Sequence record: NC_048799.1
Strand: one strand, 5' to 3'
Source: Escherichia phage Mangalitsa
DNA length: 52,329 nucleotides
Under the pieces are notes generated by a model, which made no database searches, was not told the origin of the DNA, and saw nothing but the letters and a program-made list of their open reading frames with translations. Made by a program: the position numbers and the translations under genes. Shown in pieces: positions 6,810 through 16,085 of this stretch; position 1 is the stretch's first letter; each line of letters starts with the position of its first letter.

Positions 6810-6850
6810 ATTAACAAGGGGCATTCATTGAGTGTTCCTGATTAATTCAA

Positions 6851-6870
6851 CATTAGTTGGATGTGAGAGA
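6851..6870 (+). promoter_or_regulatory. phage-RNAP-type promoter CATTAGTTGGATGTGAGAGA
   Basis: Motif family member, 70 nt upstream of the SSB-tail gene. Confidence 0.55.
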
Positions 6871-7912: not shown

Positions 7913-7964
7913 TTAACAGAGGTCATTCCACTTCGAGTGGCCTCGATTAATTATTGGAGGTTAC

Positions 7965-8096
7965 ATGTGGGATATTTATCTTGAAGGTGTTGACGAGCCA
8001 ATTTCAACACTTAACACACAATTTGTTACGGTTGGGTGTGCAATCCTCTACAAAGGTAGGTTGTACACCGTATCTAAAATCGTTCAGAGGTTTTAA
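7965..8096 (+). CDS. hypothetical small protein (43 aa)
   Basis: GGAGG RBS 4 nt upstream; stop overlaps the ATG of the next gene. Confidence 0.3.
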   Translation: MWDIYLEGVDEPISTLNTQFVTVGCAILYKGRLYTVSKIVQRF

Positions 8097-8437
8097 TGAA
8101 AACATTTTACATCTTCTTAGTTATTCTTTTCGGCGTCTTAACCTTTAAATCTGAAGCCAAACAGGTTAAATTTGGTTGCGACGGCTTTGATGTAACTTTA
8201 GACCAGTTTGAAAACAGACCAATCGTAGCATCAATCACATTTGAACCAGGTACTTGGGTTGAAGTTCCAGAAAGCGGAGATTCAAACACCATTCACCTAT
8301 TCAATATAGTCAATAGCAAACTTGCAGTTATGGGTATGGACCATCATGGCTCACTGTTTCTGCAAATTTATCGCGATTATGATTTCTATCAGGCCCACCA
8401 GCCTCAACATAGTTTAAGATGTTTGGAGAGAAAATGA
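8096..8437 (+). CDS. hypothetical exported protein (N-terminal signal peptide)
   Basis: MKTFYIFLVILFGVLTFKSEA-KQ: hydrophobic leader with an A-X-A-like cleavage context. Confidence 0.5.
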   Translation: MKTFYIFLVILFGVLTFKSEAKQVKFGCDGFDVTLDQFENRPIVASITFEPGTWVEVPESGDSNTIHLFNIVNSKLAVMGMDHHGSLFLQIYRDYDFYQAHQPQHSLRCLERK

Positions 8438-8661
8438 CGTCAGCCGAATTTACCATTGATGGAGTACCATACTTACTAGAATCCAATTGCGAATACCGCC
8501 ATTGGTCAGTAATTCACGACCGAGTTGTAAAATACTTGGAACGTGTAGGGAGAGCAACCGCAGTATTGTTTGAAGCAACCGTTGAAGGTAGTACATCAAT
8601 CAATAAAGAGTGTGTTGCTTTTAAATTAACCATCAACCCACAAGGTAATAACTTCCGATGA
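8434..8661 (+). CDS. hypothetical protein
   Basis: ATG 8434 with GGAGAG RBS, overlaps upstream stop. Confidence 0.45.
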   Translation: MTSAEFTIDGVPYLLESNCEYRHWSVIHDRVVKYLERVGRATAVLFEATVEGSTSINKECVAFKLTINPQGNNFR

Positions 8662-8924
8662 AAGTTGAAGAACTTGCAGACCGCTTGGCGGCAGCAAAGA
8701 AAGAGCTTGCAACACATGCTACACGTGTTAATTCTCTTAAAGCACTCCCTTCTGGTGAGGAAATCTCACTATTCACAGACAATATTTGGTTTTCAATGAA
8801 TCGTGCACAATTTATTGAGATTCAGGACCAACGTTTGGCTGAACTGGAGCAGAAAGTTGCCAGTTATGAGGGTTTACTGCAAACTTTACAAGCAACACTG
8901 GACCAGGAGCTGGGAAATGTCTAA
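8658..8924 (+). CDS. hypothetical coiled-coil protein
   Basis: ORF; Leu/Glu/Ala-rich heptads. Confidence 0.5.
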   Translation: MKVEELADRLAAAKKELATHATRVNSLKALPSGEEISLFTDNIWFSMNRAQFIEIQDQRLAELEQKVASYEGLLQTLQATLDQELGNV

Positions 8925-9315
8925 TGTTAAGTTGGGCCAACGCTCACTTGACCGACTCAAGGGTGTAAATCCCTCATTAGTGGCAGTTTTCAAGCGTGCA
9001 TGTGAAACAATGCCGTTTGATGTAACTGTTCTTGAAGGATTGCGCACTTATGAGCGCCAACAAGAGCTTTTAAAGCAGGGTGCAACCAAAGTTTCAGTTA
9101 GCCGACACATGTCAGGCAATGCTTTAGACATTGCACCATATCCAATTGACTGGAATGACCTCGAACGATTCCAAATTGTAGCTGAACACATGTTCAAAGC
9201 CGCAGAAGAGCTTGGAATTGTCATTCGTTGGGGCGGAACATGGGAGCGTTCATTCACTAAGCCAGTGAAATGGGCTAAATTCCTAGACGCACCACACTTC
9301 GAACTTCCAGCATAA
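8917..9315 (+). CDS. peptidase M15 family, T5 Lys-like L-alanyl-D-glutamate endopeptidase (endolysin candidate)
   Basis: SRHMSGNALDIAPYPIDWNDLERF, IRWGGTW and PHFEL match the zinc-peptidase signature of T5-type endolysins as recalled; ATG 8917 overlaps upstream stop. Confidence 0.7.
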   Translation: MSNVKLGQRSLDRLKGVNPSLVAVFKRACETMPFDVTVLEGLRTYERQQELLKQGATKVSVSRHMSGNALDIAPYPIDWNDLERFQIVAEHMFKAAEELGIVIRWGGTWERSFTKPVKWAKFLDAPHFELPA

Positions 9316-9335
9316 CTTCATCAATGGAGCATCCG

Positions 9336-9614
9336 ATGAATTACGAAGATATCCCAAGAGAGTTGAATGCACTAGAGTCAAGAGCCATCCGTGCAGAGAA
9401 TATTCTCCACCAGCACCTATCAATTAACGTAGGTGATGAAAAGAAGATGCAGTACACTATGGAACTTGACGATGTAGTCTACACTGTCAGTTACAACGAG
9501 AAGGCTGCTATCCTCAGTGCACTTATCAAAGGTGGAAATGAGCGAATCAATCAACTTAAGATTCTGGACACAGAATTGAGAGGCACTTGGGAGAAACTAA
9601 ATGCAAAACGATAA
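9336..9614 (+). CDS. hypothetical protein
   Basis: ATG 9336 with GGAGC RBS (alternative ATG at 9324). Confidence 0.45.
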   Translation: MNYEDIPRELNALESRAIRAENILHQHLSINVGDEKKMQYTMELDDVVYTVSYNEKAAILSALIKGGNERINQLKILDTELRGTWEKLNAKR

Positions 9615-10149
9615 CATTACTCAAGCAGTAGAACAGCTAAAGTCCTGGCGTAGAGATGAAACCTTATTGGTTCGTTTCTACACAGGCGAAACTAATTCTG
9701 AATTTGTAGATGCGTGGATTGATGGCCTGTCTTGGCGTCACTATGATTTCAACATGCGGGACTATTTGCATGAAGAATATGGCATTGAATATCCAGAAGA
9801 CGGTACATATGACGTAATTGAATCAAACGAAGAAGATGTTACCGAAGTTTGCTTTGCCAATGGGCTATTCAGCATTCGTAAATATGATAAGTTCAATGGG
9901 CTGCTTGTTGACACCGATTTGGATGTAATTCTTGCAGCATTCCGCAGTGGTGAGATTGATATTTTCACTGTGGATGATTTGAACGACATGTTCATCACAC
10001 GTTGCGACTCAATTACAGAATATTTGAAGCAAAGTGAGGCACTGGATATTCCAGACCGCCTTGCACCATATATTGATTGGGATGCAATAACCAGAGATTA
10101 TGGAAGTGACTACATTTTCTCTGAGGGAATATTATTCTTAAATGCGTGA
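9601..10149 (+). CDS. acidic protein, candidate ArdA-like DNA-mimic anti-restriction protein
   Basis: Strongly acidic 182 aa; segments FYTGETNSEFVDAWIDGL and YIDWDAITRDYGSDYIFSEGILF resemble ArdA N- and C-terminal signatures as I recall them; not search-verified. Confidence 0.4.
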   Translation: MQNDNITQAVEQLKSWRRDETLLVRFYTGETNSEFVDAWIDGLSWRHYDFNMRDYLHEEYGIEYPEDGTYDVIESNEEDVTEVCFANGLFSIRKYDKFNGLLVDTDLDVILAAFRSGEIDIFTVDDLNDMFITRCDSITEYLKQSEALDIPDRLAPYIDWDAITRDYGSDYIFSEGILFLNA

Positions 10150-10381
10150 TTTAAATATTGCTGAACTTGAGGCTGGATTGATTGTTCACCACCAGCCTCG
10201 AAACACTTTCTATCGTATTCTTGGGCCTACAAAGATTAAAACTCACTCCGGAGATTGGGTAGATGGGTTTGCTTACCAGGAAGTGAAGAAATACGGGAAT
10301 CATACTTTCTTGAGTATTGATTCTTCTACTATCTACACACGACCGAAAGAGCTATTTGACTCAGATTGGAAAACACTATAG
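10142..10381 (+). CDS. hypothetical protein
   Basis: ORF overlapping upstream stop. Confidence 0.45.
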   Translation: MRDLNIAELEAGLIVHHQPRNTFYRILGPTKIKTHSGDWVDGFAYQEVKKYGNHTFLSIDSSTIYTRPKELFDSDWKTL

Positions 10382-10591
10382 TTCCAGGCGGTTTCTTCGA
10401 AGTGCCAAGCGGGTTTGTTGCTCGCATTGGCCTTCGGCATTCTTCTGGGGCATTAGTGGGATTTGATTCTGACCTCTTAGGGAAGAAAGGCATTATACAC
10501 TTATCGCCAAATAGGTGTCAAGCACTTTCTTCATTTATTTTAATTTATTCTTATTATTCTTTTTGTTTGGAATATTGGAATAATTCTTAAA

Positions 10592-10785: not shown

Positions 10786-10799
10786 TTGGAATTGGAGAA
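10780..10799 (+). promoter_or_regulatory. phage-RNAP-type promoter CATTAGTTGGAATTGGAGAA
   Basis: Motif family member; transcription would enter the GC-rich 10800..11434 leader. Confidence 0.5.
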
Positions 10800-11434
10800 A
10801 CAACATCAGATAATAACTTTGTAACTCGGTAGACCGTTGCGGCCGCATCGTGAGAGAATGTTCGACTCATTCTGCAAAGTTATTTTCGATGGAATGTTTC
10901 CATCACATACATTTATCTTTTAACATAGGCCAAAGGGCCGGAATACTTCTTCGCAGAAAAGCTATTCACTTGTTATAGGCGATGTATTGGGATGAATTGG
11001 AACTAAATAAGCAAGCTGTTAGGGCTGAATAATTAGAGGGTAGTGCCTCATGCTTATGTTAGTCATTCGAAAATAGGTTTGTGCCACAAGCTGCTGGTGC
11101 TCTGAGGAAGTCGGACAAACAGGGCTTAGAGTGGCATAATCCGCACAAAACCTCGCCACCAGCTATGCCAAAGCAGGTGGATTGGGTGAATGTATTGGGA
11201 AGGGTTGCAAAGCCTCTGTGACACGCCTGAGCCGCAAGGCGACGACACTCATGTGATTAGCGTATCGCACCCCTAACGGGAGTAACCCTTCACCAATGCA
11301 GTTATCCAGAATTGACACAAACGGTAGGCAGCGGCCCGATTTTCGGCCTTCCTGCGCTGCCCTGTGGCCTGTTTCCTGGGCCAAAAGATGAGAAGAGAAG
11401 TCACAAACACTGAATCGAAAATTGGAGAGTTCCT

Positions 11435-13196: not shown

Positions 13197-14041
13197 GTTG
13201 CCAAGGGCAAACTTGAGAAGCTAAGCTAATTCGATCTGGCACGCACTGGAAGATTTCCGGTGCTGCCTTGAACCCATTCCGGCGTGAGTGGGCTTCAATG
13301 AGCATTCTTGTGATTAGAGTTGGGAGGTAGGCCGATGCCCAATCTCGTGGCCCAGACAAGAGTGTTCATTGAAGTTATTTCAATATGGATGTACAGTAGG
13401 ATGAGAAGCTTCTCCGATAAGAGGAGTGAAAGTAGCTGGAAGGACATGCCCACAGAACTGACCGAGACCATTACAGTAGTAGCGATTCACTACCGCGAAA
13501 CAGTATTGAAATTGGCAACGGTTCATGCGGAAGGGCATCAGTGAAATCTACGTTCAGTGCGCGTGGTGAAATGAAGGAGTAGTGTCCTGAGAATTAGCCC
13601 TGTCTGGTTAAATGCCAGAGTCCATATTAAAGTAACTGGAAACTATTCCTGTCAGGTACTCCTATAATGTCTGAAACGGAGTCAGGTCGCACCTGGTAGC
13701 CGAGGCTATTTACCTACAGATGGATACCTGACAGAAGTAGTTTTCTGAGTCTTACGACGGGCCTAAACTGCCTGGAGTTATTGCGACTGTTTTATTCATT
13801 TAAAATAAATGCAAATGATTCTGAAATGCGAGTTGCGGCTTAATTAAATTTGAGTCCTCTCCGTGGTCTTCCAATCCCATGTAACCAAATTTGGCGCATT
13901 GTGGCTTCGAGATGTGATTAATAAATCGGAGCAATAATTAATTTGTATTCTGCGATGCAGGGCAGGCTTAAGTCCCTCAGTGCGCGTAGGGATGTGATAG
14001 AGTACAAACTTAATTATTAACCTAACCTATAGAGAAACATT

Positions 14042-14296
14042 ATGGAAAGCATTGCCGTATTAATTGTTGGTGTTCTGTTGTTTGCTGCATACATGATTCC
14101 AACTCTCATTGCATTTAGTCGTGGTCATGCTTCCAAGTGGGGCATTTTCATTACAAATCTGTTACTAGGTTTAACAGGAATCTTTTGGGTTGCTGCATTA
14201 ATCTGGTCGCTGTCCAATAAAGGTCAGCAACAATCTCTTGTTGTAAATGTTGGCAGTAATAATGTCAGCAATGTATCACAAAAGGATTCGCTTTAA
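14042..14296 (+). CDS. superinfection-immunity-like small membrane protein
   Basis: Two predicted TM helices; MIPTLIAFSRGHASKWGIFITNLLLGLTGIFWVAALIWSL fits the A..R.H....I..N.LLG.T.I.W..A.IW pattern I recall for this family. Confidence 0.5.
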   Translation: MESIAVLIVGVLLFAAYMIPTLIAFSRGHASKWGIFITNLLLGLTGIFWVAALIWSLSNKGQQQSLVVNVGSNNVSNVSQKDSL

Positions 14297-14543
14297 GTGA
14301 ATTGCCCTGAGCATGGAAATAAACTGCTCTAACCGATGGTATCTACAAAGGTAGATTAAATCAGGTTGCCTGTTGGTACTTGGGTTCAACACCTGCTTGC
14401 ACTCGCAAAGTAGTGCCTTGTACCTGAGATGAAGTGAGTCGGGACCATCAATCCCACGTTATGTCAAAACACAGTAGGCGACTCACAGATTCTACAAGCC
14501 TCGCAGTTTGGGAAAACCTGCGTTACCAAAACCCACCTCATTC

Positions 14544-14639
14544 GGACGAGTAGCTCAGAAGGTCTGCTCCAGAGCTTAGTCAGGTAGAGCAATCTGTTCG
14601 ACAGATGTGTCGTTGGTTCGAATCCAACCTTGTCCACCA
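14544..14639 (+). tRNA. tRNA-like gene with an expanded D region; candidate anticodon UCG (Arg) if the anticodon loop is GTTCGAC
   Basis: 7-bp acceptor stem GGACGAG/CTTGTCC, canonical T-arm GTTGG-TTCGAAT-CCAAC, discriminator A and encoded CCA; D-arm-like GCTT-AGTCAGGTA-GAGC preceded by about 20 extra nt; 93 nt before CCA. Confidence 0.4.
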
Positions 14640-14669
14640 GCTTTAATAACCCGCAACACTGGAGTCCTT

Positions 14670-14810
14670 ATGGATTTTGATGCACTTGATAACTTAGACT
14701 TCGGTGCTGCCGAAGAAGCAATTGAAGAACTGAAGAAGAAACAGGACGAAGAAGCAATCGTTCCTGGTGCTGGCGACAACGACTGCTCAAGTGGTGCGTG
14801 CGCCATCTAA
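14670..14810 (+). CDS. hypothetical small acidic peptide (46 aa) with Cys-containing C-terminus
   Basis: GGAG RBS; MDFDALDNLDFGAAEE...GAGDNDCSSGACAI. Confidence 0.35.
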   Translation: MDFDALDNLDFGAAEEAIEELKKKQDEEAIVPGAGDNDCSSGACAI

Positions 14811-14818
14811 GGTGAATC

Positions 14819-15055
14819 ATGCAACAGCTTAAGTCAATCTTTCTTGGCGTCTTGACTGCATTGGGTATTCTCCTTGCAGTGTTCCTCAAAGGCAAAAGCT
14901 CAGGCAAAGCCGAGGAGCGCCAGGAAGCCAAAGAGAAGCAATTCGATTCCATTAAAGAATCTATCGAGATTAAAACGCATGTTCAGAAAGAAGTGTCTAG
15001 CAGTTCTGATAGCAATGTCGATAGTGAGTTGCTCTCAAAGTGGGTTCGTAAGTGA
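14819..15055 (+). CDS. small membrane-anchored protein, possible i-spanin-like
   Basis: N-terminal TM IFLGVLTALGILLAVFL followed by a charged helical region; AAGGTG RBS. Confidence 0.4.
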   Translation: MQQLKSIFLGVLTALGILLAVFLKGKSSGKAEERQEAKEKQFDSIKESIEIKTHVQKEVSSSSDSNVDSELLSKWVRK

Positions 15056-15188
15056 TTACTGCATGATTGCACAACCAATATATTTGGATGTTGCAGAAGT
15101 GAAAGTTTTGTCACGCGAAACCAAAACACAGATTTTAGTCCACAATGAAACGTGGGCACAAAAGTGTTCGAAACTTACCCGACAGTGA
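14979..15188 (+). CDS. possible o-spanin-like lipoprotein overlapping the preceding gene in the +1 frame
   Basis: MFRKKCLAVLIAMSIVSC: positive n-region, hydrophobic core and lipobox-like IVSC; starts inside 14819..15055 and extends past it; rare codons weaken the call. Confidence 0.3.
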   Translation: MFRKKCLAVLIAMSIVSCSQSGFVSDYCMIAQPIYLDVAEVKVLSRETKTQILVHNETWAQKCSKLTRQ

Positions 15189-16085
15189 GTGAACAAGACG
15201 GACGTCTATAACTTCCCACATAAAGTCGAGGGAGTGCGCGACTTTAAATAACGAGACTCTAGCCACTTGTGGTATGGCAGGTGTAATTCCTGCAAGTTGC
15301 TCTGGGCATAACAATTGAAATTGCTGCCTCGCATTGAACGCGAAAAAGTTCAGGTAGTCACTTCCTAGAACAGTGGCCGGGAACAGACCTAGACAAAAGT
15401 GCTTGAGAACGTTAGCTCTGTCTTGCCAGCATTAATGGCACGTTGGCCGCGTAAAGGCCACAGCGTCTGACCAACGTATCGGTCAACCAAATTCAACGGA
15501 TTCGTAGAGTTAATGAAACCTGCACGATGGGATAGGGATGAAGCATCCGAGGCCGACTGTGTAATTGTGAACGCGGAGTTCACCGAATCCACCAAATCAA
15601 TGGGCTAGTGCAAATGTCAGTCACTAGAAGATGTGTTGCAAAACGTCTTCCATGATGTGCAAAGTGTCAGTCACGTGCCCACCACTTTCCTAACAGTTAT
15701 GCCTCTGTTCAAAAGGCTCATGCGAGCGTCTGGCATACCGTAGCGATACGGCTTAGTTGCGCTGATTGTGTTGTGTCGAAAGAAAGTTCAGGCTTTCGTT
15801 TGAGTTCCTCCTCATCTCGAAGTTAGCTGGATTCAAAATCCAGACTATGTTCCTATTCACATGAAATATGCAAGTCGAGGGTTCTTAATATCTGACATAG
15901 GTATTAAGCGGGTTTATACTTTTCCCCGATGGTCCCCATAAACAAGGTTGATTCACTTGGGCGGTTCGAATCAAATTTAATAAGTGTCTTGGCCGCAGTG
16001 GAAACATCATTTAAGCCAATTTATTGTAATGTTCGTAATAGTCCACGTCAGGGCACTTACTTAAATTTTATCTAGAGAGAGAAAC

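Follow-up and report, generated by a model that had tools for sequence, protein, structure and literature searches.

T7 gene 0.3 encodes Ocr, an acidic dimer that mimics DNA and blocks type I restriction-modification enzymes; the stretch mimicked is approximately 24 bp long and bent in the case of Ocr, and approximately 42 bp long for the ArdA dimer. ArdA of Tn916 (Orf18, PDB 2W82) is encoded by a conjugative transposon, and the chain sequence in PDB entries 7BTO and 7BTR, which we take to be EcoR124I complexes, is identical to that of the ArdA in 2W82. The roles of the dimer-interface residues and of other essential residues of ArdA have been described (McMahon et al. 2009, PMC2731889). Also available for comparison is the ColIb-P9-type ArdA of Enterobacteriaceae (WP_000129958), the product of a plasmid leading-region gene, which was a positive control and a hit in a lambda/MG1655 infection screen and is listed there as a known type I restriction-modification inhibitor (Silas et al., bioRxiv 10.1101/2023.04.06.535777). 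The "phage ArdA" control associated with that study is in fact this plasmid ArdA and was set aside as a phage protein. Additionally, ArdA genes are reported to be capable of influencing gene regulation in the host (PMC10746416).

Among the chaseviruses, the label "antirestriction protein" already exists for phiEcoM-GJ1 gp22, ST32 ORF26, SA91KD gp28, the PYps16N protein and the protein family PHROG 14321. The orthologues are not labelled consistently in public records, however, being termed "tail fiber protein" in MLP1 and "hypothetical" in Faunus, and our literature search for experiments on chasevirus ArdA homologues, including anti-restriction activity, found none. Here we describe an orthologue from a Carltongylesvirus (Chaseviridae) genome of ~52 kb, with the window referring to the whole 52,329-nucleotide stretch of DNA that was analysed. 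This genome is distinct from its nearest record (~91% nucleotide identity over the first 25 kb), and the closest protein to the ArdA-like product is 98% identical. From a combination of profile comparison, structure prediction and analysis of gene order, we conclude that the product of the gene is probably a divergent ArdA-family DNA mimic specific to chaseviruses, with type I anti-restriction function.

The ArdA-like gene and its product

A gene of 182 codons at positions 9601 to 10149 had been claimed in a preliminary description, and an ATG-initiated plus-strand open reading frame does span exactly this interval (Table 1). Close homologues start at the same methionine or within 1-2 residues of it, and the GGGAG Shine-Dalgarno motif is likewise listed for the ST32 ORF26 orthologue. 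The large excess of Asp and Glu that had been reported is also evident, as the protein contains 24 Asp and 16 Glu (40 residues, or 22%) versus 14 Lys/Arg for a net charge of -26. Because 4.05 is the lowest pI that the calculator returns, the computed value is read as 4.05 or lower. Among the 82 ATG-initiated plus-strand open reading frames of at least 70 aa in the window, this one is the most acidic. Proven ArdA proteins have similar values, the acidic content of Tn916 ArdA being 23% with a net charge of -32 and that of the plasmid ArdA 21% with a net charge of -27, and all 45 aligned relatives are acidic (net charge -15 to -39). The net charges of domains 1, 2 and 3 (Table 1) compare with -12, -10 and -9 in Tn916 ArdA.

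Table 1. Features of the ArdA-like locus, with positions numbered along the window
Feature	Positions	Strand	Evidence and remarks
Promoter-like motif ACATTAGTTGGATGTGA, nearest copy upstream	6850..6866	+	Annotated phiEcoM-GJ1-type promoter in SA91KD
Hairpin upstream of block	7919..7944	+	-19.7 kcal/mol, z -5.2; annotated terminator in SA91KD
Endolysin (M15 peptidase), same tightly packed block	8917..9315	+	Pfam Peptidase_M15_4 E 6e-9; PHROG 465 endolysin E 4e-55
Upstream 96-aa ORF	9324..9614	+	14-nt overlap with ArdA-like start; positional homologue in other chaseviruses
Shine-Dalgarno-like GGGAG	9589..9593	+	7 nt before ATG; read from sequence
ArdA-like CDS	9601..10149	+	182 aa plus stop codon; ORF list, PHROG 14321, hhalign, fold match to 2W82
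N-terminal extension, aa 1-17, predicted helix 4-15	9601..9651	+	AF2 pLDDT 73-80; MAFFT
Domain 1 equivalent, aa 18-84, net -15	9652..9852	+	Boundaries mapped from Tn916 residues 3/61
Domain 2 equivalent, aa 85-129, helical, net -5	9853..9987	+	Model helices 92-104, 107-116
Domain 3 equivalent, aa 130-182, net -6	9988..10146	+	hhalign; profile match to 2w82; dimerisation domain in ArdA
"Anti-restriction motif"/dimer-interface segment, aa 147-160, ALDIPDRLAPYIDW	10039..10080	+	Aligns with Tn916 residues 126-140
VF-motif equivalent, L178-F179	10132..10137	+	Aligns with Tn916 I160-F161
Downstream 79-aa ORF	10142..10381	+	8-nt overlap with ArdA-like stop; last gene of operon
Hairpin ending block	10397..10437	+	-24.1 kcal/mol, z -3.8; homologous to SA91KD annotated terminator

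Homology to ArdA

When searched as a single sequence, the protein has Pfam ArdA (PF07275) as its top but weak Pfam match (E 0.0041, 18.2 bits, profile positions 44-145 of 155), short of the 27-bit gathering cut-off of that model, and a search of NCBIfam gave no match. Both results count against the ArdA reading. A further Pfam match to DUF6429 (E 0.012, 28 residues) was dismissed as noise. While the assignment to ArdA made in the preliminary description thus falls below the cut-off for the single sequence, homology at the level of profiles and through intermediates is strong. For example, PHROG 14321 ("anti-restriction protein") matches the protein from end to end (E 3e-50), and Pfam ArdA is matched by 11 of 11 members of the chasevirus clade. 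The best of these, P0049, is a full-length homologue with 40% identity to the protein described here that passes the PF07275 cut-off (5.5e-9, 37.3 bits). Because of the difference between these two scores, we regard our protein as a divergent member of an ArdA subfamily that is under-detected by the Pfam model.

The relatives extend beyond this clade. Canonical ArdA proteins (160-175 aa, 62-101 bits on PF07275) were among those retrieved by an exhaustive profile search, and of the 45 aligned relatives, 36 match the Pfam family, the best at E 1e-28, and no other family. Direct comparison by hhalign of a chasevirus-only profile with a canonical-ArdA profile, of which six members were individually scanned (62-101 bits on PF07275), aligned 88 columns from aa 94 onward with a probability of 98.8% and an E value of 1.3e-16. 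With the plasmid ArdA, hhalign homology covers aa 94-182 and the MAFFT alignment is collinear over the full length, with ~17% identity in the aligned part; identity to Tn916 ArdA is 15-18%. Against the PDB, the 45-sequence profile matched residues 109-162 of 2w82 (E 8e-5). The archaeal primase subunit PriL was considered as another candidate, given that a phmmer single-sequence search of the PDB returned weak PriL matches only (E 0.26) and that PriL and ArdA were tied when a shallow 11-sequence profile was used (0.0093 vs 0.012). We treat PriL as a chance match because it disappeared with the 45-sequence profile while ArdA strengthened. The terminal signatures that had been named for the family are both present, with VRFYT...DAWIDGL aligning with the canonical YVGTY..YN.G...G.W.DL near the N-terminus and IPDRLAPYIDWDAITRDYGSDYIFSEGILF aligning with EIPE.L..YID....ARD...DY....GHVF at the C-terminus. 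The resemblance to ArdA originally claimed is borne out by the hhalign comparison, the 36 relatives and the fold match to 2W82 described below.

Gene order and timing of expression

Transcription of the gene probably follows infection, with the gene second to last of seven in a hairpin-bounded block that lies within the left fifth of the genome, the "small-gene" region. Unlike the plasmid ArdA gene, it is a gene of a lytic-phage operon. The order of endolysin, small ORF and ArdA-like gene is conserved across chasevirus genera, a synteny counted in favor of the ArdA reading, and the orthologues phiEcoM-GJ1 gp22, ST32 ORF26, SA91KD gp28 and that of PYps16N, which are of the same length with 74-88% identity, are likewise placed after an endolysin and a small ORF. 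The upstream 96-aa ORF is weakly conserved (14-27% identity), and searches of Pfam and PHROG with it gave no match. The downstream 79-aa ORF is 42-51% identical across genera with an invariant HQPR...AYQ...LFD.DW pattern, and matches PHROG 2652, which is labelled "unknown function". Scanning the window against Rfam and for tRNA genes gave no matches.

The promoter-like motif ACATTAGTTGGATGTGA occurs in 11 copies with three or fewer mismatches versus 0.24 expected, all of them on the plus strand. The nearest lies ~2.75 kb upstream of the ArdA-like gene with the first hairpin of Table 1 in between. A partial promoter-like 9-mer at 8975 inside the endolysin gene was dismissed, with the rest of the motif missing. 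There is also a conserved sigma-70 promoter of perfect consensus on the minus strand (10521..10492), just downstream of the operon and facing backwards. It points antisense toward the operon, which is counted against the ArdA reading. A scan of viral contigs for this antisense sigma-70 pattern returned at least 120 matches that were mostly unrelated and included two chasevirus loci, so that the pattern is too unspecific.

Early rather than middle expression, as had been proposed in the preliminary description, is a putative timing read from the position of the gene. Both T7 and the phage described here are virulent coliphages that encode their own single-subunit RNA polymerase, and the job proposed for the ArdA-like protein is the same as that of Ocr. 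However, T7 ocr precedes all other genes in entering the cell and in being transcribed, while the ArdA-like gene lies 9.6 kb into the genome, a difference that counts against an ArdA/Ocr-like reading. A tentative alternative, which we rate as somewhat improbable though serious, is that the protein is a type I inhibitor encoded by a middle gene that the phage RNA polymerase expresses together with the endolysin block. In that case, unlike T7 Ocr, its task would be to safeguard progeny DNA that is replicating and unmethylated, or to block the host methylase/restriction complex at a later stage, and not to shield the incoming genome. Consistent with such timing, the gene is roughly the 22nd to 28th in annotated relatives and not the first (phiEcoM-GJ1 gp22, ST32 ORF26, SA91KD gene 28), it shares an operon with the endolysin gene, the upstream promoter-like elements are conserved phage-type motifs only, with the closest of these beyond the hairpin, and no plus-strand sigma-70-like site in the whole genome reaches 11 of 12 matches. 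Arguing the other way, the gene has small ORFs of the host-takeover type as neighbours, lies within the leftmost fifth of the genome and precedes the replication module. Additionally, the ACATTAGTTGGATGTGA motif is a candidate promoter of the phage RNA polymerase only, as chasevirus promoters are given as unidentified in the ICTV profile.

Predicted fold and conserved residues

An AF2 monomer model of the protein is of high confidence (pLDDT 92, pTM 0.84). Upon a Foldseek search of the PDB with this model, 2w82 was the only significant match (E 2.3e-4, probability 1.0, TM 0.53/0.58, 177 columns), with the next having E>1. As the sole significant solved-fold match, 2W82 agrees with the DNA-mimic family that had been named in the preliminary description. 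The best matches in a BFVD fold search were the "antirestriction proteins" of phages 4HA13, SSEM1 and Myduc, presumably all chaseviruses. By this high-confidence prediction, the protein has the elongated ArdA fold of 2W82, with its three small alpha/beta domains. Neither Pfam nor the PDB fold searches gave a match to Ocr for this protein; the parallel with Ocr is functional only and the two proteins are unrelated.

At the level of aligned residues, the dimer-interface residues that define ArdA are preserved. P151, L154, Y157-I158-D159 and D166 correspond to P131, L134, Y137-I138-D139 and D146 of Tn916 ArdA, and P151, I158 and D159 are invariant within the chasevirus clade. The counterpart of Tn916 L127 shifts between A147 and L148 with the alignment used. 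These correspondences show that the hydrophobic and hydrogen-bonding residues of the ArdA head-to-head dimer are kept in the aligned sequence. The essential VF motif, which in ArdA lies in the middle beta-strand of domain 3 and holds this domain against domain 2, is by the same alignment kept as well, with L178-F179 sitting in a predicted strand (177-180) and Phe present at the second position in 56 of 57 sequences. Similarly, W39 aligns with Tn916 W23 in a column that is Trp in 48 of the 57 sequences. A linker-fused two-copy AF2 model gave a pTM of 0.57, where ~0.4 is expected for two unplaced halves and ~0.76 is possible; this moderate confidence counts against the ArdA reading. Both copies in this model contain an isolated beta-bridge at I158 that is absent from the monomer model. 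This bridge is a hint of dimer formation, of the kind that the main-chain contacts between Y137 and D139' of ArdA, equivalent to Y157 and D159' here, would produce.

There are also clear differences from the canonical proteins. The 17 extra N-terminal residues, modelled as a helix, have no counterpart in either Tn916 or plasmid ArdA by MAFFT and count against the ArdA reading; W16 and R17 within them are invariant across the chasevirus clade. The KYN.G loop in domain 1 of canonical ArdA is replaced, and the initial helix of domain 3 is shorter by approximately five residues, with loss of E122/E123. Of the seven acidic residues that span the dimer interface in Tn916 ArdA (D109, D111, D112, D115, E122, E123 and E129), three are still acidic (D136, E140 and D149), although this count depends on an uncertain alignment in the first helix of domain 3. 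Tn916 D112 is replaced by S137, and D109, E122 and E123 fall in gaps or in the five-residue deletion. This loss counts against the ArdA reading, as does the essential F91 of Tn916 ArdA having no clear equivalent, with S116 at its position.

We consider it unlikely that the protein is a DNA mimic of ArdA fold whose main target is not, or not only, type I enzymes but some other defence or host factor that binds DNA, such as BREX or type III systems (which Ocr also counters) or nucleoid or regulatory proteins. Under this explanation the clade-specific N-terminal helix with its invariant W16/R17 and the altered central charge pattern, in which a five-residue deletion and the loss of four of the seven dimer-spanning acidic residues coincide, would reflect retargeting, and the two conserved small ORFs that are fixed neighbours of the gene and the regulatory effects reported for ArdA genes would fit as well. 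However, the ArdA-defining dimer-interface and VF residues are kept, charge and length match those of ArdAs that inhibit type I enzymes, and ArdA sequences vary widely yet keep type I inhibition. With similar doubt, we entertain a distinct "long" ArdA clade that has the N-terminal helix, whose central helix is shortened and central charge track reduced, and that sits in a fixed block of endolysin, ~95-aa ORF, ArdA-like gene and ~80-aa ORF. In such a block the end hairpin faced by the sigma-70 promoter could denote timing dependent on host RNA polymerase, an antisense switch or an adjacent replication origin, and the target range may exceed type I. It is highly improbable that the resemblance is fortuitous, with an acidic protein of unrelated function (such as an assembly chaperone or decoy peptide) having acquired its ArdA label by propagated error; the sub-threshold Pfam score, the equally weak PriL matches of the single-sequence and shallow-profile searches and the inconsistent orthologue annotations would agree with this, but the hhalign result, the gain of ArdA and loss of PriL with the deeper profile, the unique full-length fold match, the conservation of exact published essential residues and an unbroken series of intermediates to canonical ArdA all argue against it.

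Proposed function and significance

As a type I anti-restriction protein, an ArdA-like dimer would, by analogy with ArdA (PMC2731889), present a DNA-like array of carboxylates. This array would fill the groove in which the HsdM2-HsdS core of type I enzymes holds DNA, and the enzymes would then be unable to bind and cut the unmodified phage genome. The genome contains 5 EcoKI, 9 EcoBI, 6 EcoAI and 19 EcoR124I sites, which is close to chance frequency with no depletion. These targets for type I enzymes constitute a need for protection and are counted in favor of the ArdA reading.

The identification of an ArdA-type gene in this genome is correct but ordinary because related phages are already annotated with an "antirestriction protein". 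Its ArdA-type identity is already known, and no new biology comes from the gene itself. What the analysis provides is firmer ground than BLAST-derived labels for an ArdA-type DNA mimic in Carltongylesvirus and other chaseviruses, a clade that the Pfam ArdA model misses and whose orthologue is mislabelled in some public records. Chaseviruses are candidates for the biocontrol of ETEC, STEC, Yersinia and Erwinia, and where strains carry type I restriction systems, this finding makes the host range of the phages easier to predict. Additionally, these phages could set off decoy immunity systems by which ArdA is sensed, such as Ronin.

Homology of the acidic protein to ArdA

The ArdA-like gene has the coordinates and the 182-aa product given in the preliminary description (see table), with a GGGAG ribosome-binding site 7 nt before its start and overlaps of 14 nt with the preceding ORF and 8 nt with the following one. 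The large excess of Asp and Glu described there is also real, as 24 Asp and 16 Glu residues (40 acidic) stand against 14 Lys/Arg for a net charge of -26. The calculator used returns no pI below 4.05, the value obtained here, so the real pI is 4.05 or lower, and the protein ranks first in acidity among the 82 ATG-initiated plus-strand ORFs of at least 70 aa in the window.

The ArdA assignment has weak support from direct HMM search and strong support from comparison of profiles. The best direct Pfam match is PF07275 (ArdA) at 18.2 bits (E 0.0041, profile positions 44-145 of 155), which falls below the 27-bit cut-off, and an NCBIfam search gave no match. PHROG 14321 ("anti-restriction protein") matches over the full length (E 3e-50) but is essentially the orthologue group of the protein itself. 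A word-indexed search returned about 50 homologues, nearly all at 74-98% identity, including the "putative antirestriction protein" of phage phiEcoM-GJ1 and the "antirestriction protein" of PYps16N; a homologue with 40% identity (P0049) has a precomputed Pfam ArdA match and scores 37.3 bits on PF07275. When a clade profile of 11 sequences was used for an exhaustive HMMER search, it recovered 78 proteins that grade continuously from chasevirus-type members of 175-188 aa to canonical ArdAs of 160-175 aa, with the latter scoring 62-101 bits on PF07275 when scanned one by one. In a 45-sequence alignment of relatives, 36 members match ArdA (best E 1.2e-28) and none matches any other family; the corresponding profile matches the Tn916 ArdA chain of PDB entry 2W82 (E 8e-5). 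The cleanest of these tests at the sequence level is a profile-profile comparison of a chasevirus-only alignment with a canonical ArdA alignment that took in the plasmid ArdA of Silas et al., a protein with experimentally shown activity. It points to common ancestry over 88 columns (aa 94-182) with a probability of 98.8% and E 1.3e-16. Weak matches to PriL seen with shallower queries disappeared with the 45-sequence profile.

Predicted fold and retained residues

An AlphaFold2 model built from the 45-sequence alignment has a pLDDT of 92 and a pTM of 0.84. When searched against the PDB with Foldseek, its sole significant match is 2w82 (E 2.3e-4, probability 1.00, TM 0.53/0.58, 177 columns) with all other matches at E>1, so that structure prediction also favors the ArdA assignment. 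In a comparison with predicted viral structures, the model came closest to proteins labelled "antirestriction protein" in the chaseviruses 4HA13, SSEM1 and Myduc. None of these searches gave an Ocr-like match.

The Tn916 ArdA sequence used for mapping is identical to 2w82, and the residues called essential by McMahon et al. (PMC2731889) were mapped onto the phage protein. The dimer-interface "anti-restriction motif" P131/L134/Y137/I138/D139/D146 is found as P151/L154/Y157/I158/D159/D166, the VF motif (I160-F161) as L178-F179, and the domain 1 Trp (W23) as W39. Acidic positions E129, D111 and D115 align with D149, D136 and E140.

A model of two copies connected through a Gly-Ser linker of 40 residues, predicted from an alignment concatenated to match, has a pTM of 0.57, which sits between estimates of about 0.4 for unplaced halves and about 0.76 for a fully defined dimer. 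In both copies DSSP places I158 in an isolated beta-bridge, which the monomer model lacks. A symmetric antiparallel I158/I158' bridge is what would be expected from the Y137..D139' main-chain hydrogen bonds described for Tn916 ArdA (PMC2731889); this modeled feature is suggestive of a dimer but is not proof.

Genome and gene block

The window covers all or nearly all of the genome of a Carltongylesvirus (Chaseviridae, Cleopatravirinae), one of a group of E. coli and Yersinia myoviruses that encode a single-subunit RNA polymerase like that of T7. The product of gene 1 matches Pfam RNA_pol, and all ORFs of at least 100 aa lie on the plus strand, barring those on the other strand nested in longer plus-strand ORFs; annotated genes of relatives also occupy a single strand throughout. 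Across the first 25 kb, the nearest records (TH53, FXie-2024a, SKA49, ST32 and Bp7) share about 90-91% of their nucleotides with the window; TH53 (MT446419, Escherichia virus TH53) is about 91% identical there and 92-97% around the ArdA-like gene. Convincing plus-strand ORFs are absent from about 650 bp directly after the promoter cluster and from a stretch of about 2.9 kb further right. The ST32 paper places a tRNA-Arg at 15.9 kb; ARAGORN and Rfam searches of the whole window found no tRNA or Rfam family.

Seven closely spaced ORFs, most of which overlap, form a block between stable hairpins, and the ArdA-like gene is the sixth of them. Homologues of these hairpins are annotated as terminators in phage SA91KD. 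The order endolysin, ~95-aa ORF, ArdA-like gene, ~80-aa ORF recurs in Erwinia phage Faunus (MH191398.1) and in three ~53-kb chasevirus-like metagenomic contigs, and a short contig of 1.8 kb shows the part small ORF, ArdA-like gene, small ORF. One metagenomic contig (L002) has a CHAP endolysin in the slot of the M15 enzyme, and the downstream small ORF is uncalled in two of the contigs. The endolysin itself lies in the early/middle small-gene region, distant from the structural genes. The 96-aa upstream ORF, predicted to be helical or coiled and matching no family, shares 14-27% identity between genera and a common start, M.Y.DIP.EL. The downstream 79-aa ORF (PHROG 2652, no Pfam match) is 42-51% identical across chasevirus genera versus 27-34% for the ArdA-like protein, with the invariant pattern HQPR..Y..K..W..AYQ..I..R..LFD.DW, and its product might be a functional partner of the ArdA-like protein.

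Coordinates of features in the window and in related genomes
Feature	Coordinates	Strand	Remark
RNA polymerase (gene 1)	211-2325	+
Left hairpin of gene block	7919-7944		stable, z -5.2
Gene block, seven ORFs	8096-10381
Endolysin	8917-9315	+	M15 L-alanyl-D-glutamate peptidase; same hairpin-bounded block
96-aa ORF	9324-9614	+	precedes ArdA-like gene in every chasevirus compared
ArdA-like gene	9601-10149	+	ATG start, stop codon included
79-aa ORF	10142-10381	+	translationally coupled to ArdA-like gene
Right hairpin of gene block	10397-10437		stable, z -3.8
Promoter-like phage motif	131, 2620, 2876, 3748, 6850, 10450, 10591, 10779, 12764, 21009, 26372, 40890	+
Sigma-70 promoter	10521..10492	-	TTGACA-N18-TATAAT
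AT-rich tract	10522-10590		adjoins sigma-70 promoter
Stretches lacking convincing + strand ORFs	10786-11434; roughly 13200-16080
EcoR124I sites (examples)	4679, 4891, 6768, 6784, 7298, 8374		GAAN6RTCG
Sigma-70 promoter in chasevirus genomes/contigs	L001 9512-9541; L006 1994-2023; L003 6870-6899; L002 6883-6912; L004 6919-6947; L032 5493-5522

Candidate promoters and timing of expression

The motif ACATTAGTTGGATGTGA ((A)CATTAGTTGGATGTGA, ~17 bp) occurs in 11-12 copies versus 0.24 expected, on the plus strand only and mostly between genes. Its sites are annotated in SA91KD as phiEcoM-GJ1-type phage promoters, and the ICTV profile describes chasevirus promoters as unidentified. There is one copy upstream of the gene for the RNA polymerase, and three others lie within 350 bp immediately after the ArdA operon. 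The ArdA-like gene lies within the leftmost fifth of the genome ahead of the replication genes and its orthologue is gene 22-28 in annotated relatives, unlike ocr, the leading gene of T7. Early expression is thus a guess from position, because the closest upstream motif, at 6850, is 2.75 kb away beyond a hairpin and the plus strand of the whole genome has no sigma-70-like site with at least 11 of 12 matches. Middle rather than early timing, with the same anti-restriction activity and compatible with an ArdA-type DNA mimic, is possible though somewhat doubtful.

Only one perfect (12/12) sigma-70 consensus occurs in the genome. It is on the minus strand, some 110 bp past the end of the ArdA operon and just right of the terminal hairpin, and faces both this hairpin and the plus-strand phage-type motif at 10450. 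A perfect promoter (N17/18 spacing) is found at the same place and orientation in SA91KD, where it is unannotated, in TH53, in Faunus and in three metagenomic chaseviruses, but is absent in one relative; in all, seven of eight chasevirus genomes with enough sequence have it, with flanks only about 70% identical. Possible roles are antisense RNA, a roadblock or timing device involving host RNA polymerase, or a component, jointly with the adjacent AT-rich tract, of a replication origin. This promoter could be of greater interest than the ArdA gene.

Proposed anti-restriction function

Type I sites occur in the genome at roughly chance frequency (EcoKI 5, EcoBI 9, EcoAI 6, EcoR124I 19). There is no avoidance of such sites, and therefore unmodified phage DNA would be restrictable. 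The EcoR124I count is about twice the 9.7 +/- 3.1 expected from a first-order Markov model, an excess that may be chance as one of eight tests; the remaining seven specificities are at expectation or slightly below.

Homology to ArdA, conserved structural motifs and acidity are established for this protein, as is, at the level of a predicted model, the ArdA fold. Its best-supported reading is a dimeric ArdA-type DNA mimic directed against type I enzymes. The protein would dimerize and the dimer would bind the HsdM2-HsdS core of type I restriction-modification enzymes, filling the DNA-binding site; restriction by enzymes occupied in this way would be alleviated and unmodified phage DNA would be protected.

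The clade does depart from canonical ArdA. F91 and D112 of Tn916 ArdA are replaced by S116 and S137, and D109, E122 and E123 fall inside a deletion of about five residues that is specific to Carltongylesvirus, the segment being present in P0049 and Faunus. An N-terminal 17-residue helix, which canonical ArdA lacks, is common to the chasevirus-type clade. That the protein is a DNA mimic retargeted elsewhere nevertheless appears unlikely, and a chance resemblance to ArdA is highly improbable.

Orthologues in phiEcoM-GJ1 (gp22), ST32, SA91KD, PYps16N, Bp7, flopper, 4HA13 and PHROGs carry the label "antirestriction protein", and a literature search found no published experiments on any of them. 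The label "tail fiber protein" is given to the 86% identical MLP1 orthologue (P0008), and an annotation with this label underlies the match in FXie-2024a (PP107930.1); the Faunus homologue is a "hypothetical protein". The identification as an ArdA-like gene is correct, and the gene is already annotated in relatives. What is added here is a firmer basis for it, consisting of the profile-profile comparison, fold and motif mapping, and a list of the departures of this clade from canonical ArdA.
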